A DNA stretch of 15,808 bases from a virus (Duplodnaviria; Heunggongvirae; Uroviricota; Caudoviricetes). Where the stretch lies: the IMG/VR virus record IMGVR_UViG_2706794698_000009, one strand, 5' to 3'. The position numbers and the translations under genes are program-made. The notes under the pieces were generated by a model, which did not search any database, had not been told where the DNA came from, and saw only the letters and a program-made list of their open reading frames with translations. This document shows positions 3,874 to 15,785 of this stretch, piece by piece (within the stretch, counting starts at the first letter, position 1; every line of letters starts with the position of its first letter).

Positions 3874-4480
3874 TTTGCTGCTCCTCATCATATCGACCCT
3901 GCAAGGTCGGTTGGTTTCTCCACAAAACAGAGAAGAACACCTGCGGTGGCAGCCGCCCGGATGGATTGGGTTATGAGCCCNNNNNNNNNNNNNNNNNNNN
4001 NNNNNNNNNNNNNNNNNNNNNNNNNNNNNNNNNNNNNNNNNNNNNNNNNNNNNNNNNNNNNNNNNNNNNNNNNNNNNNNNNNNNNNNNNNNNNNNNNNNN
4101 NNNNNNNNNNNNNNNNNNNNNNNNNNNNNNNNNNNNNNNNNNNNNNNNNNNNNNNNNNNNNNNNNNNNNNNNNNNNNNNNNNNNNNNNNNNNNNNNNNNN
4201 NNNNNNNNNNNNNNNNNNNNNNNNNNNNNNNNNNNNNNNNNTCCATAAATGCCCTCATCGTTGCACCCTGGTCTCTTCCCAGGCGTCAAACCGAATCGCC
4301 ACGCTGGTTAGGCGTCTTATCAGCATCATCATTGACTTGCACATTCCGGCTACCTGGTTTGTTTGCCCGAGCAAGGAGTGGATTGTCCCCTTTAACGTCC
4401 CCAGACCGCTAACGACGCATGTGCCATACGCCGTGTTACAACCAAATTTTGTTAGTACCTTGTTTGTTTGTCTGGAAAGA

Positions 4481-4588: not shown

Positions 4589-5281
4589 TTAATTGTGTCG
4601 CTTAAGGGTTTGTGACTGGCTGATTAAGACCTTTCCAAAGACCATAAACCGGTGTTCATTTTCGCTGGTAATTCCCCATTCACGGTAAATCTGGTTATCA
4701 GAAATCACCAGTAGTTTGTCAGGTATCATTTGCAGTCGTTTGACATAAATTTTATCATCAAAACCAAATACATAGATACCATCTCCATCAAACTGATTGA
4801 TACTGACATCAACGAAGATGAGATCTCCTGGCTCAATGGTTGGACACATACTGTCCCCACGAACGTTGATAACTTTAATGTGATTGGCTGGCCGTCCGCC
4901 AAACATCGATACAGCATTATCAGTTCTGTATTCAATGGCATGAATCACATCAATGACATCACCGCCCTGGATAAGGCCATTTCCCGCACTGGCACTGACA
5001 TCCAGCATTTCAATACGGAATACATCCTTCACCTGCGCAACATCCTCACTAATACTGTTTTTACATACAGTATTACTTTTGACGTCTGAGGTAAAGAGAT
5101 CAGCAATATCAACACCTAAGCTCCTGGCAATATTACTCAGGGCTTGTTCAGTGAATTGTTTCTGCTTACCTGTTTCCAGGCGTGAGATATTCGCCGCATC
5201 CACTCCTATTGCTTCAGCGAGATCGGCGATTTTCATGTTCTTCGCCTGGCGAAGTTGTCTGACTCGGTTTCCTATGTTCAT
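4589..5281 (-). CDS. cI-like prophage repressor (N-terminal XRE-type HTH, C-terminal S24 LexA-like autopeptidase)
   Basis: 230 aa. The N-terminus (IADLAEAIGVDAANISRLETGK) is HTH-like. The C-terminus carries a candidate Ala-Gly cleavage site (SASAGNG), the Ser motif GDSM and the Lys motif VKRL. The gene is divergent from the cro-like gene. Confidence 0.85.
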   Translation of the reverse strand: MNIGNRVRQLRQAKNMKIADLAEAIGVDAANISRLETGKQKQFTEQALSNIARSLGVDIADLFTSDVKSNTVCKNSISEDVAQVKDVFRIEMLDVSASAGNGLIQGGDVIDVIHAIEYRTDNAVSMFGGRPANHIKVINVRGDSMCPTIEPGDLIFVDVSINQFDGDGIYVFGFDDKIYVKRLQMIPDKLLVISDNQIYREWGITSENEHRFMVFGKVLISQSQTLKRHN

Positions 5282-5378: not shown

Positions 5379-5639
5379 ATGCAATCACCATTACGGAATG
5401 TGCGTAAGGCGCACGGATTTACTTTGCAGCATGTTGCTGCTGGCGTTCAGGTCAATCCAGCGACGCTGAGTCGTATTGAAAGACTGGAACAAATTCCATC
5501 TATCGATCTTGCAGAACGTCTGGCCAATTTTTTTAAGGGTGAAATCAGCGAAATGCAGATTCTTTATCCGGCACGTTTTCAATCTAGCCAAAACCAGAAT
5601 GGGTTTAAACCACAGGAACAGGAGGTAAGCCGTGGGTAA
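5379..5639 (+). CDS. Cro-like XRE-family HTH regulator
   Basis: 86 aa with HTH segment FTLQHVAAGVQVNPATLSRIERLEQIPSID. GGAGG at 5370-5374 precedes the ATG. It is the first gene of the rightward operon, opposite the repressor. Confidence 0.7.
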   Translation: MQSPLRNVRKAHGFTLQHVAAGVQVNPATLSRIERLEQIPSIDLAERLANFFKGEISEMQILYPARFQSSQNQNGFKPQEQEVSRG

Positions 5640-6183
5640 TCATCACTGGAAAGTGGAAAAACAGCCTGAGTGGTACGTGAAAGCTGTCAGAAAAACTATC
5701 GCAGCGTTGCCGGGTGGTTACGCTGAAGCAGCTGACTGGCTGGATGTAACAGAAAACGCATTATTTAACCGCCTTCGTGCCGATGGCGATCAGATTTTCC
5801 CGCTGGGATGGGCAATGATTTTGCAACGTGCTGGTGGAACTCACTTCATTGCTGACGCTGTGGCGCAGTCTGCAAATGGCGTCTTTGTGTCTCTTCCTGA
5901 CGTCGAGGATGTGGACAACGCCGATATTAACCAGCGCCTGCTGGAAGTCATTGAACAGATTGGCAGTTATTCCAGACAGATTCGTTCGGCAATCGAAGAC
6001 GGTGTGGTGGAACCGCATGAGAAGACAGCAATTAACGACGAGCTGTATCTCTCAATTTCGAAGCTGCAGGAGCATGCAGCACTGGTCTACAAAATCTTTT
6101 GCATTTCAGAAAGTAATGACGCCCGCGAGTGTGCAGCTCCGGGCGCCGTGGCGTGTCGTGACTGTGGAGAAACTAACGCATGA
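5632..6183 (+). CDS. Early regulatory protein in the cII position (possibly 186-CII/CP76-like or YdaT-like); function uncertain
   Basis: 183 aa. The GTG start at 5632 has GGAGG at 5620-5624 and overlaps the cro-like stop. The family assignment is from memory and weak. Confidence 0.45.
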
Positions 6184-6518
6184 ACAGTTTAACAACACAC
6201 TACCGTCGCTCGCAACTGATTGCGCTTCCTGTACCGGGTGGAAAAGCGAAGGTGGAGTATTGCTATGCAGTTAATGTACCAGGTGACAGGGAAATTGTAA
6301 CCCACAGCTTTGCTGAGTGGGCTGTGGGTGATTTCAACCGGCAGAAGGAGACAGTCCTTTGCGACAAGTTAACCGCTGGTTCAAAGATCACTACGGAGTG
6401 CCCGTCAGAGTCATTCGTTGGGAGCCGGAAACACAACGAGTTATCTACCTCCGCGAAGGCTATGAGCATGAGTGCTTCAGCCCGCTCGAACAGTTTCGTC
6501 GTAAATTCAGGGAAATAG
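6180..6518 (+). CDS. Hypothetical protein, possibly frameshifted; only the first half looks coding
   Basis: The ATG overlaps the upstream TGA as ATGA. Residues 1 to about 60 look protein-like; the rest is Ser/Thr-rich low complexity, while another frame looks coding over the same DNA. Confidence 0.3.
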
Positions 6519-6538
6519 AGGTCGGTCATGAGCACTAA
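6359..6538 (+). CDS. Alternative-frame small ORF (59 aa), or the 3' part of a frameshifted gene
   Basis: TTG at 6359 with AAGGAG (6344-6349) 9 nt upstream. The translation [59 protein letters not shown] is protein-like. Its TAA at 6536-6538 overlaps the start of the replication gene at 6528. Confidence 0.35.
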
Positions 6539-7469
6539 ATTAACCGGCTATGTATGGGATGGTTGCGCTGCATCAGGCATGAAATTATCCAGCGTGGCAA
6601 TTATGGCCCGCCTGGCTGATTTCAGTAATGACGAAGGTGTGTGCTGGCCATCAATTGAAACTATTGCCCGTCAGATTGGCGCGGGGATGAGTACCGTCAG
6701 GACGGCTATCGCGCGGCTGGAAGCAGAAGGCTGGTTAACGCGTAAGGCGCGTCGCCAGGGTAACCGCAATGCGTCGAATGTTTATCAGCTTAACGTTGCG
6801 AAGCTTCAGGCAGCGGCATTTTCTCAACTGTCAGATTCTGACCCGTCAAAATCTGACGCATCAAAATCTGACCCGTCAAAATTTGATGCGTCGAAATCTG
6901 GCAAAAAAGCGGGTTTTCACCCGTCAGAATCTGGCGGGGATCCGTCAGTAAAATCAAAACATGATCCGTCAGATAAAAAACCTTCTCGTCCGGACGCTTC
7001 GCAACCGGACACGCAGACGGATGAACAGGATTTTTTAACTCGCCATCCTGATGCGGTTGTATTCAGCCCTAAAAAGCGCCAGTGGGGAACGCAGGATGAT
7101 TTGACCTGCGCACAGTGGCTCTGGAAAAAAATCATCGCCCTGTACGAGCAAGCCGCCGAATGTGACGGCGAGGTGGTTCGTCCCAAAGAACCGAACTGGA
7201 CAGCCTGGGCAAACGAAATTCGCCTGATGTGTGTGCAGGATGGTCGTACTCACAAACAAATCTGCGAGATGTACAGCCGCGTCAGCCGCGATCCGTTCTG
7301 GTGCCGTAACGTGCTCAGCCCGTCGAAGTTGCGGGAAAAATGGGATGAGCTTTCCCTGCGCTTATCACCGTCCGTCAGCACGTACACCGAAAAACGCGAA
7401 GACCCGTACTTCAAATCCAGTTACGACAACGTGGACTACAGCCAGATCCCGGCAGGATTCAGGGGGTGA
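6528..7469 (+). CDS. Phage replication initiation protein (O-like; N-terminal winged-HTH, repeat linker, C-terminal DnaT-like region)
   Basis: 313 aa. The N-terminus (ARLADFSNDEGVCWPSIETIARQIGAGMSTVRTAIARLEAEGWL) resembles the replication-initiator HTH. The internal pentapeptide repeats DPSKS/DASKS are encoded by DNA iterons. Position is right of the cro/cII-like genes. Confidence 0.7.
   Translation: MSTKLTGYVWDGCAASGMKLSSVAIMARLADFSNDEGVCWPSIETIARQIGAGMSTVRTAIARLEAEGWLTRKARRQGNRNASNVYQLNVAKLQAAAFSQLSDSDPSKSDASKSDPSKFDASKSGKKAGFHPSESGGDPSVKSKHDPSDKKPSRPDASQPDTQTDEQDFLTRHPDAVVFSPKKRQWGTQDDLTCAQWLWKKIIALYEQAAECDGEVVRPKEPNWTAWANEIRLMCVQDGRTHKQICEMYSRVSRDPFWCRNVLSPSKLREKWDELSLRLSPSVSTYTEKREDPYFKSSYDNVDYSQIPAGFRG
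6827..6979 (+). repeat. Iteron array (candidate phage origin of replication) inside the initiator gene
   Basis: Five contiguous 15-bp direct repeats with consensus CCGTCAAAATCTGA span 6827-6901. Three further spaced copies lie at 6920-6934, 6941-6955 and 6965-6979. This is analogous to the lambda origin inside gene O. Confidence 0.6.
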
Positions 7470-7471
7470 TC

Positions 7472-7960
7472 ATGAGTCTGTTAAATGACGTTCAGAAATT
7501 CATTGAAGCCCATCCGGGGTGTACTTCCGGAGACATTGCGGATGCTTTTGCAGGTTACTCACGGCAGCGCGTTCTGCAGTCTGCAAGCAAGTTACGTCAG
7601 AGTGGGCGTGTGGCTCACCGTTGTGAAGGAGATACACGCAGACATTTCCCGCGCCTGACTGAGAGAGCGCAGGAGCCGGAACCACAACCAGTTCGTGAAA
7701 CCAGACCTGTGCGCAATTTCTATGTCGGCACTAACGATCCCCGGGTGATTTTGTGCCTGACCCGCCAGGCGGAAGAACTGGAGTCCAGGGGCTTATACCG
7801 TCGTGCTGCAACGGTGTGGATGGCGGCATTCCGTGAAAGCCACTCCCAGCCAGAACGAAACAATTTTCTGGCGCGTCGTGAGCAGTGTTTACGGAAAAGC
7901 AGCAAGCGTGCTGTATCGAGTGATGAGTGGTATCTGTCAGGGAATTACGTGGGGGCTTAA
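7472..7960 (+). CDS. Putative regulator with a PerC-like C-terminal motif
   Basis: 162 aa from the ATG at 7472, which has AGGGGG upstream; the ORF-track GTG at 7466 overlaps the previous stop. The motif AEELESRGLYRRAATVWMAAF resembles PerC-family activators from memory. Confidence 0.45.
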   Translation: MSLLNDVQKFIEAHPGCTSGDIADAFAGYSRQRVLQSASKLRQSGRVAHRCEGDTRRHFPRLTERAQEPEPQPVRETRPVRNFYVGTNDPRVILCLTRQAEELESRGLYRRAATVWMAAFRESHSQPERNNFLARREQCLRKSSKRAVSSDEWYLSGNYVGA

Positions 7961-8308: not shown

Positions 8309-8622
8309 NNNNNNNNNNNNNNNNNNNNNNNNNNNNNNNNNNNNNNNNNNNNNNNNNNNNNNNNNNNNNNNNNNNNNNNNNNNNNNNNNNNNNNNNNNNN
8401 NNNNNNNNNNNNNNNNNNNNNNNNNNNNNNNNNNNNNNNNNNNNNNNNNNNNNNNNNNNNNNNNNNNNNNNNNNNNNNNNNNNNNNNNNNNNNNNNNNNN
8501 NNNNNNNNNNNNNNNNNNNNNNNNNNNNNNNNNNNNNNNNNNNNNNNNNNNNNNNNNNNNNNTGAGGCGTTTCTGGCGCAGGTTCGCCAGCAGGCGGAAA
8601 AACTGGTCAGGGAGATGGCGGC

Positions 8623-12555: not shown

Positions 12556-12855
12556 AAAAATTCCTTAATACTGATAACTGGGCGCACTATACACACGTTC
12601 CTGAAGAAAGCTATAGTTTTTTGATGGGGTTGAAGATGGCTGGATGTCTAAAATAAACATTGCTTCATATGTTCAACTATGCGTTAATGATTGCGTCGGT
12701 TTGAAGAACAGACGATATACGAAGTAGTTTACTAAAGCAGTTCTCATTTCAGGTGTTATTCACTTATTCCTTCTTTGAGTCTCTCCAATTAAGTACGAAG
12801 TCGTTTCTGTTATACAAGCCATTTATGCCGAAAGGCTCAAGTTAAGGAATGTAGA

Positions 12856-13071
12856 ATGTCAAATAAAATGACTGGTTTAGTAAAATGGTTTAACGCTGAT
12901 AAAGGTTTTGGCTTTATTTCTCCTGTTGATGGTAGTAAAGATGTGTTTGTGCATTTTTCTGCGATTCAGAATGATAATTTTCGAACCTTATTTGAAGGTC
13001 AAAAGGTTACCTTCTCTGTAGAGAGTGGTGCTAAAGGTCCTGCAGCAGCAAATGTCATAATTACTGATTAA
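12856..13071 (+). CDS. cspB: Cold-shock protein CspB
   Basis: 71 aa: [71 protein letters not shown], near-identical to remembered CspB. It has a long upstream leader typical of cold-shock genes. Confidence 0.9.
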
Positions 13072-13755
13072 AATTCATAGTTTGTCTGTATACGATAACG
13101 AAGAAGGCTGATGCCTGAGTGGAGATACAGACAGAGTGGTGAATATTGGATCTCTTTAATAAATAGTAAGGAGGTCCAATACATGAAACAATGGCCAGCA
13201 TATTTGGCAATAACTTAATCAGGAAAAGTATGCTAACCATTGTGGTGAAGTGCAGGTTTGCTGCATGAATAGTTTTACAGCAGAAGCTAACTGCTGGCAT
13301 AGCAAAACAAAGTGCGTAAGTGGATGACNNNNNNNNNNNNNNNNNNNNNNNNNNNNNNNNNNNNNNNNNNNNNNNNNNNNNNNNNNNNNNNNNNNNNNNN
13401 NNNNNNNNNNNNNNNNNNNNNNNNNNNNNNNNNNNNNNNNNNNNNNNNNNNNNNNNNNNNNNNNNNNNNNNNNNNNNNNNNNNNNNNNNNNNNNNNNNNN
13501 NNNNNNNNNNTGATTTTGAGTCTTTACGTTCTGACATAGGCTTTTCCTGTATAAATGGCCGTATACAGTACACTAAATATGAAAACATATCTCGTATTAT
13601 TATTTAATACATGATTTTCTTTTAAAATAATTACCCACATTTTTAATGTGTCTGTTTTTTAGCGCCGTTGAGAACAATGTTTGCTATAAAAACTAACCCA
13701 TAGACTCCGATCTTTTCAAACATATTGCACCATCTGTGTACATCGGGGCGAGGAT

Positions 13756-13916: not shown

Positions 13917-14165
13917 NNNNNNNNNNNNNNNNNNNNNNNNNNNNNNNNNNNNNNNNNNNNNNNNNNNNNNNNNNNNNNNNNNNNNNNNNNNNNNNNNNNN
14001 NNNNNNNNNNNNNNNNNNNNNNNNNNNNNNNNNNNNNNNNNNNNNNNNNNNNNNNNNNNNNNNNNNNNNNNNNNNNNNNNNNNNNNNNNNNNNNNNNNNN
14101 NNNNNNNNNNNNNNNNNNNNNNNNNNNNNNNNNNNNNNNNNNNNNNNNNNNNNNNNNNNNNGAAT

Positions 14166-14357: not shown

Positions 14358-14763
14358 NNNNNNNNNNNNNNNNNNNNNNNNNNNNNNNNNNNNNNNNNNN
14401 NNNNNNNNNNNNNNNNNNNNNNNNNNNNNNNNNNNNNNNNNNNNNNNNNNNNNNNNNNNNNNNNNNNNNNNNNNNNNNNNNNNNNNNNNNNNNNNNNNNN
14501 NNNNNNNNNNNNNNNNNNNNNNNNNNNNNNNNNNNNNNNNNNNNNNNNNNNNNNNNNNNNNNNNNNNNNNNNNNNNNNNNNNNNNNNNNNNNNNNNNNNN
14601 NNNNNNNTTAAATCAGCAAAAGTTTGTTTTGGTAGATTTGTGTAATCCATAGTCACCTCTGTGTTTATCAGATTGACATCCTCCTCCCGCCAGTGCCCAT
14701 CACTGGTGAGGTAAGATTTAACATATCCGGGGATTTGAAGCCGATAAATCCTGATAAATATCC

Positions 14764-15785
<1,022 letters not shown>

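Follow-up and report, generated by a model that had tools for sequence, protein, structure and literature searches.

A DUF4222 gene nested out of frame within ymfM of a lambdoid prophage, and an outer frame that appears to be kept open

We analysed a 15,808-nucleotide (nt) stretch of viral DNA (Caudoviricetes; IMG/VR record IMGVR_UViG_2706794698_000009), hereafter the window, with attention to positions 6180–6538, where two plus-strand reading frames overlap between a regulatory gene and a replication gene. The window derives from a lambdoid Escherichia coli prophage of the e14/SfII type and corresponds to its immunity and early-replication region. In frame 0, a ymfM-type open reading frame (ORF) of 112 amino acids (aa) occupies 6180–6518 and, as had been noticed from the sequence alone, begins by an ATGA junction in which the TGA of the upstream ymfL gene (5632–6183) overlaps ATG 6180. 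This ORF is the orthologue of E. coli K-12 e14 ymfM (b1148; phrog_1170, E = 3.8e-70) and lies, as b1148 does, between ymfL and an O-like replication gene. The window and K-12 YmfM proteins are both 112 aa long and differ by three substitutions (E87G, A94V, S98N), all within the tail, and the 501 nt of DNA around the locus are 96.6% identical to K-12. The plus-strand ORF comprises a conserved N-terminal domain (N-domain; residues 1–52, 6180–6335; ...YCYAV...FAEWAVGD), a short segment (residues 53–61, 6336–6362) made of the same bases as the ribosome-binding site and start codon of a second gene, and a tail (residues 62–112, 6363–6515) that is the +1-frame reading of that second gene. Its TAG stop codon (6516–6518) abuts the ribosome-binding site (GAGG, 6518–6521) of the downstream replication initiator gene, whose ATG lies at 6528.

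The second gene (6359–6538, plus strand) encodes a 59-aa DUF4222 protein in the -1 frame relative to ymfM. Its frame is open from 6332, the first start codon is TTG 6359, and its TAA (6536–6538) overlaps the start of the initiator gene, all in agreement with the sequence-only reading. The translation of 6332–6538 matched Pfam DUF4222 (PF13973) with E = 2.6e-19 (69 bits against a cut-off of 27; profile positions 1–52 of 53). Relatives of this protein (phrog_1343) are 59–70 aa long and typically begin MRQVNRW or MAEVNRR. When counted from TTG 6359, the window protein falls within the family range of 58–79 aa and carries the N-terminal motif M-R/A-x-V/L-N/D-R, and the family N-termini MRQVNRW, MRELNRW and MAEVNRR agree with this start position. 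The protein is modelled confidently, with a predicted Tudor/SH3-like beta-barrel fold. By contrast with DUF4222, the 112-aa YmfM matched no family in Pfam; a sequence search of solved structures returned nothing for either protein, and searches of NCBIfam and PADLOC gave no matches.

The start region of DUF4222 carries its own initiation signals. A Shine-Dalgarno sequence, AAGGAG, lies at 6345–6350 on the plus strand; this hexamer had been recognised in the sequence-only reading, which placed it 9 nt upstream of the TTG, while the spacer is in fact 8 nt. Across nine lineages, an NTG start codon stands at one aligned position (TTG in the window; ATG in L250, L253, L257, L260 and L007; GTG in L254, L256 and L258), and in all nine it is preceded by a purine-rich tract 7–12 nt upstream. 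Within ymfM the AAGGAG encodes K56-E57 and CT[T TG]C, with the start codon in brackets, encodes L60-C61. The frame-0 Cys61 is invariant and coincides with the DUF4222 NTG in all lineages; it is a by-product of the start codon (xTG-C). These conserved signals show DUF4222 to be a gene that would be initiated independently, from a ribosome-binding site and start codon of its own. A six-pair hairpin at 6343–6361 can also be drawn, in which the ribosome-binding site (GAAGGA) pairs with UCCUUU, including the first U of the UUG (z = -2.1 for the 81-nt fold). RNA structure hiding the DUF4222 start was rejected as a general feature, the hairpin not being conserved in eleven other lineages, all of which have ATG or GTG starts.

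This two-frame layout is widespread. Of 5426 complete E. coli genomes, 2647 contain the 501 nt spanning the locus, 2003 of them with a match over at least 80% of the query; at least 2003 complete genomes share the layout. Isolated phages, SfII and SfIV among them, have it too, and it recurs in lineages whose proteins are just ~45–65% identical to those of the window.

Polymorphism was examined in two samples, one of loci chosen on the N-domain and one of loci chosen on DUF4222, each of which is therefore unbiased for the other gene. Over 6180–6358, in the DUF4222-chosen loci (51 unique sequences), 17 of 25 variant alleles fell at codon position 3 of frame 0; 18/25 were synonymous in frame 0 and 5/25 in the DUF4222 frame. 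Over the overlap (6359–6515), in the N-domain-chosen loci (86 unique sequences), 27 of 43 variant alleles fell at codon position 3 of DUF4222; 25 were synonymous in DUF4222 and six in frame 0, where the other 37 were non-synonymous. These data place the change of selected frame in the interval 6353–6373 and, with the Pfam match, bear out the earlier claim that the coding signal changes frame in the middle of the ORF. Both frames are under selection, of different kinds, with the switch at ~6359. The locus thus holds two ORFs on one strand and in different frames, the inner with start signals of its own, as expected of a nested pair; within the overlap, purifying selection on amino-acid sequence was found in the DUF4222 frame and not in both frames. 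A minus-strand ORF of 90 aa (6263–6535) was also considered as coding and set aside, as variable positions fall at its codon position 1.

The conservation of YmfM itself follows the same division. Among YmfM homologues down to 46% identity, protein comparison showed residues 1 to ~60 to be kept and none beyond, and the N-domain is conserved down to 38–46% identity when stand-alone proteins of 59–68 aa are included. Such stand-alone homologues occupy the same operon position in Hafnia phage yong2 and Providencia phage PSTRCR_117lys, and variants that have lost the core of DUF4222 (L008, L009 and P0219) retain the N-domain, which therefore does not need the tail. Shorter ymfM variants proved to be indels or deletion junctions. 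An AlphaFold2 model of YmfM gave residues 10–66 a beta3-alpha2 arrangement with a predicted local distance difference test score (pLDDT) of 60–71, and residues 68–112 a pLDDT below 50; the tail is predicted to be disordered. It is rich in Ser, Thr and Ala, which confirms the low complexity reported earlier for the latter half of the ORF. The functional part of ymfM is a small N-terminal domain of ~52 residues. As to the reach of these comparisons, an N-domain scan of one genome per species yielded only six loci, scans of viral and metagenome sets returned near-identical N-domains only, and divergent DNA was obtained via exact-protein look-ups and phage records. Several deposited phage records contain N-domain ORFs that are not annotated, at ~1310–1471 of L349 (Yersinia phage YeP2), ~1150–1520 of L343 (Pantoea phage AH07) and 1201–1398 and 2097–2264 of L345 (Citrobacter phage phiNP), the last of which likewise leaves its DUF4222 gene unannotated. 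Residues 19–50 of YmfM (6234–6329; motif LPVPGG..V.YCYAV...G) resemble the DUF7507 and Flg_new repeats of large surface proteins, an example being P0233, which has four repeats of LPVGGGDVTYCYAVDNTG. Homology was not accepted here, and the resemblance is treated as probably a short shared beta-hairpin motif.

Although its amino acids are not conserved, the tail frame is open almost without exception, which the sequence-only reading had not anticipated. Among 126 distinct DUF4222 5' sequences, 125 are free of stops in the +1 (ymfM) frame over codons 1–52, and the lone exception carries an in-frame deletion; the N-domain types upstream of these sequences number three to four and differ greatly from one another. 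Every member that overlaps DUF4222 keeps a tail of ~50 residues. Given the DUF4222 protein and local codon usage, synonymous resampling put the probability of an open frame at 0.05–0.16 per lineage. The codon choices of DUF4222 depend on context in the corresponding way. Before a codon starting with A, Val is encoded by GTT (217) or GTC (161) and never by GTG or GTA (0 each), whereas before C or T all four codons occur (GTG 65, GTA 17, GTC 75, GTT 13). With AGA at Arg17, Val16 is GTC in 55/55 cases, whereas with CGN there it takes any of the four codons. For Ile, ATC is used in 46/46 cases before A, while in safe contexts 64 of 228 Ile codons are ATA. This pattern recurs over 27 sequence clusters. 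In controls with no upstream read-through ORF, the +1 frame contains stops (four in Serratia phage BZS1, two in Yersinia phage YeP2, three in EKP1 and seven in Citrobacter phage phiNP), and the open frame is therefore not intrinsic to DUF4222. The codon data show that the open state of frame 0 is selected, in a context-dependent manner, through the codon choice of DUF4222. In the tail, stops are excluded and amino acids unconstrained: the sequences compared are consistent with a tail whose amino acids drift freely and an outer frame constrained only to stay open.

The position at which this open frame ends is nearly fixed. Of 211 unique contexts with a nested DUF4222, 191 have exactly 9 nt between the end of the frame-0 stop and the ATG of the downstream long ORF, the initiator; others show an overlap of 8 or 11 nt or a gap of 3 nt. 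Relative to the same ATG, the stop of DUF4222 lies anywhere from -4 to -44 nt. The ymfM stop is thus fixed 9 nt 5' of the initiator ATG, close to the downstream start and ribosome-binding site as in translationally coupled genes. Where the N-domain stands alone, in yong2 and PSTRCR_117lys, its ORF overlaps the replication gene by ATGA, and of the deletion forms L008 has an ATGA overlap with the initiator and L009 an 11-nt overlap with its start. In Yersinia phage YeP2 the genes follow one another without nesting: an N-domain ORF of 53 aa has its stop at the ATG of DUF4222, which in turn is coupled by ATGA to rep O.

These arrangements suggest a role for the tail as a translational bridge across the nested gene to the initiator, a proposal drawn from geometry alone to which we give roughly even odds. 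The grounds for it are that the N-domain dispenses with the tail, that YeP2 has the serial layout, that the 9-nt stop spacing is constant and that the TAG abuts GAGG. Under this proposal, ribosomes would reach ymfM from ymfL through the ATGA junction, would translate it across the nested DUF4222 gene via the open tail, and would terminate on the ribosome-binding site of the initiator, and the ymfL-ymfM-initiator coupling chain would be kept intact along the operon. A stronger form holds that the frame of the 51-residue tail is open purely for ribosome passage, with selection on continuity of the ORF and not on the protein, and that the published SfiC phenotype belongs to just one of the two products; we put this forward tentatively, at somewhat below even odds.

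Taken together, the best explanation overall is that the locus contains two genuine genes on the same strand in different frames together with a selected open tail, for which the bridge is the proposed role; we assign this a probability of about 0.75. A number of points weigh against it. The sequences are phylogenetically related, so the counts given above represent non-independent events, and the 9-nt constancy could partly reflect shared ancestry of the initiator ribosome-binding region. The coupling has been deduced from geometry alone, and translation of DUF4222 itself covers the same stretch of mRNA, so that the need for a bridge is not obvious. SfV and Stx phages depart from the simple pattern: their frame 0 has no stop near a replication gene and continues in frame into a Rha-like gene. 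A full-text literature search for ymfM with ribosome profiling found no paper. Finally, in 12/12 lineages synonymous resampling of DUF4222 predicts a slightly more hydrophobic tail than is observed, with hydrophobic content and T at DUF4222 third positions both below expectation, which hints at some selection on the polypeptide.

The last of these points belongs to a different account of the open frame, in which the tail is a functional part of YmfM, a hydrophilic and disordered C-terminal extension serving activity, turnover or solubility, and the frame is kept for the sake of the protein. Selection against stops shows that the frame is translated, and the presence of a ~50-residue tail in every member overlapping DUF4222 would also fit. 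However, the 37 of 43 overlap variants that are non-synonymous in frame 0 are hard to reconcile with it, as are the 59–68 aa stand-alone homologues, the DUF4222-deleted variants without a tail and the pLDDT below 50; moreover, the hydrophobicity effect is weak within each lineage and the lineages are related. We consider a functional tail less likely than not, but far from negligible.

Two further accounts treat the two frames as parts of one protein. According to one, a single ancestral gene, a fusion of the N-domain and DUF4222, was interrupted, either by a frameshift mutation or by an indel from sequencing, both of which had been offered, beside two nested genes, as options in the sequence-only reading. 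The comparison with homologues suggested there, which looked for a single uninterrupted ORF, did recover a few fusion proteins in databases (P0030, P0052, P0059, P0065 and P0090). Fusions are rare, however, mostly come from read-assembly collections and have their junction at a different position in each, and P0030, P0052, P0059 and P0065 are sporadic indel variants; intact single-ORF homologues, which should predominate were this a frameshifted pseudogene, do not. The layout found in the at least 2003 complete genomes is kept in all divergent lineages, the DUF4222 start codon and ribosome-binding site are conserved, and each module is found alone in other phages. The converse pattern, in which homologues would conserve the frame-0 C-terminal half and not the other frame, was looked for and the opposite was found. 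A broken gene is accordingly extremely improbable, and the comparative data leave two nested genes as the one of the three options that stands. One of the fusions, P0065 (119 aa, 14 member sequences), has a one-base indel near 6330 that joins the N-domain in frame to DUF4222; it occurs in several read-assembly records and may be a real variant lineage rather than an error. The other account invokes a programmed -1 ribosomal frameshift yielding the fusion beside the separate products, and every lineage does have DUF4222 in the -1 frame relative to ymfM. This constant relation is explained by the need for frame 0 to stay open, since the third frame carries 2–6 stops. As the sequence-only reading had observed, there is no slippery heptamer (X XXY YYZ) in 6332–6358, and across lineages the comparison showed no conserved motif at the junction and no conserved RNA structure around it. 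In addition, the DUF4222 frame is closed just upstream of its start in L250 (TGA two codons before the ATG) and L258 (TGA six codons before the GTG). The earlier judgement against such a frameshift is upheld, and we regard it as very improbable. We attach similarly little credence to the idea that only one current annotation is right, either that of PGAP (DUF4222 alone, with 6184–6358 non-coding) or that of K-12 (the 112-aa YmfM alone, with DUF4222 spurious), which is suggested by each pipeline annotating just one ORF of the two. The PGAP version is contradicted by codon-position-3 variation over 6180–6358 that is synonymous in frame 0, and by the existence of an N-domain protein family, some of whose members stand alone. 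The K-12 version is contradicted by DUF4222, which scores strongly against its Pfam profile, varies synonymously in its own frame, is modelled with a confident fold and has members that stand alone beside replication genes.

The reading of two nested genes bears directly on how this DNA is annotated and on what has been attributed to it. The K-12 reference record lists the 112-aa ORF as ymfM (b1148, 'cell division inhibitor YmfM', SfiC) and lists ymfM only. On K-12-derived and window-identical DNA, PGAP instead annotates the 59-aa DUF4222 protein WP_001250269.1 and leaves the first 175 nt of ymfM unannotated; among the E. coli matches listed, all PGAP entries are of DUF4222 only. Two standard annotations of the same DNA are therefore in conflict, and each misses a real gene. 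This matters because ymfM is now credited with the long-sought SfiC SOS-inducible division block. In the published experiments, the whole ymfM ORF expressed from pBAD24 caused filamentation and loss of Z rings, and whole-gene deletions were used (Ansari et al., bioRxiv 10.1101/2020.11.19.390815). The same ymfM deletions were taken up in later work, and the fragments recovered in earlier screens span ymfL' to ymfN'. Of DUF4222, the pBAD24 clone keeps the ribosome-binding site, the start codon and the core domain. As all published constructs and deletions include or remove both coding sequences, the published phenotype can be assigned to neither frame as yet. Should the bridge proposal be true, the SfiC phenotype would be that of one product only, either the ~52-aa N-domain or the nested Tudor-like DUF4222 protein. 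With less confidence, we infer that the fast-evolving N-domain, not DUF4222, is the division inhibitor. The literature searched contained no paper linking ymfM with DUF4222; each gene is known singly, and the overlap, the stop-avoidance signature and the ambiguity over the SfiC product appear not to have been described before. More generally, the locus offers an unusually clean natural case in which selection acts on the openness of a reading frame and not on its amino acids, and the context-dependent synonymous codon pattern should be useful for methods that detect overlapping genes.

The early rightward operon to which the locus belongs runs in the order cI, cro, ymfL/cII, the ymfM/DUF4222 locus, the replication initiator and a PerC-like gene. 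A LexA-family, cI-like repressor is encoded on the minus strand (4589–5281), followed by cro (5379–5639) and by the plus-strand YmfL/CII-like regulator gene, which matches Pfam Phage_CP76 (PF06892, E = 8.4e-14) and which PGAP labels ymfL. The initiator gene (6528–7469, plus strand) encodes an O-like protein of the HTH_36 family (PF13730, E = 4.3e-11), and its synteny with the locus is kept in all lineages. Further 4-nt stop-start overlaps (GTGA and ATGA) at 7466–7469 and ~7957–7960 join the initiator, the PerC-like gene and a methyltransferase gene, so that the early operon as a whole would form a succession of ORFs coupled in translation. The window contains seven runs of N totalling 1702 bases (2403–2662, 3981–4241, 8309–8562, 13329–13510, 13917–14161, 14358–14607 and 14929–15178), one of which breaks the methyltransferase gene 3' of the PerC-like gene. 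At 12695–13134 on the plus strand there is a full-length Rfam match to the cspA thermoregulator 5' untranslated region (RF01766, 156 bits against a gathering score of 78), which implies a cold-shock-protein-like gene within or beside the prophage. In other phage records, ORFs of 278 aa (phage SfV orf37; L346, 1352–2188) and 383 aa (Stx2a_WGPS2 gp13; L347, 1352–2503) are annotated as 'transcriptional regulator'. Both begin with a ymfM-like N-region (MNSLTANNRLSQQ...) and read through a nested, GTG-start DUF4222 in the +1 frame into the Rha-like gene, whose own start is apparently the internal MATIPTLTQPE. Either the start of these long ORFs has been mis-annotated, or they extend the same kind of read-through over a greater length.

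The closest point of comparison is e14 ymfM of K-12 itself, which has the same ATGA after ymfL, the same stop 9 nt before the O-like gene and an identical nested DUF4222 ORF. In published work it is treated as one 112-aa protein, unlike the two-gene reading given here. The Pfam DUF4222 family has no assigned function, and its description does not include nesting inside another ORF. The window gene and most of its enterobacterial relatives are nested in this way, unlike the DUF4222 genes of Serratia BZS1, Yersinia YeP2 and EKP1, which stand alone directly 5' of a replication gene.

Among overlapping genes more widely, the lambda Rz/Rz1 and phiX174-type arrangements place a small gene almost wholly inside another, on the same strand but in a different frame, with a ribosome-binding site and start of its own. 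In Rz/Rz1 both overlapping frames encode a functional, conserved protein. The ymfM/DUF4222 pair is likewise nested, but its outer frame is merely kept open while the amino acids drift. Translationally coupled operon genes are joined by ATGA or by short stop-start spacing, and the same chain is seen here, with ATGA between ymfL and ymfM, a 9-nt gap from the ymfM stop to the ATG of the initiator, and GTGA between the initiator and the next gene. What would set ymfM apart from such genes, if it is coupled as its arrangement suggests, is that it would have to cross ~160 nt of another gene's coding sequence.

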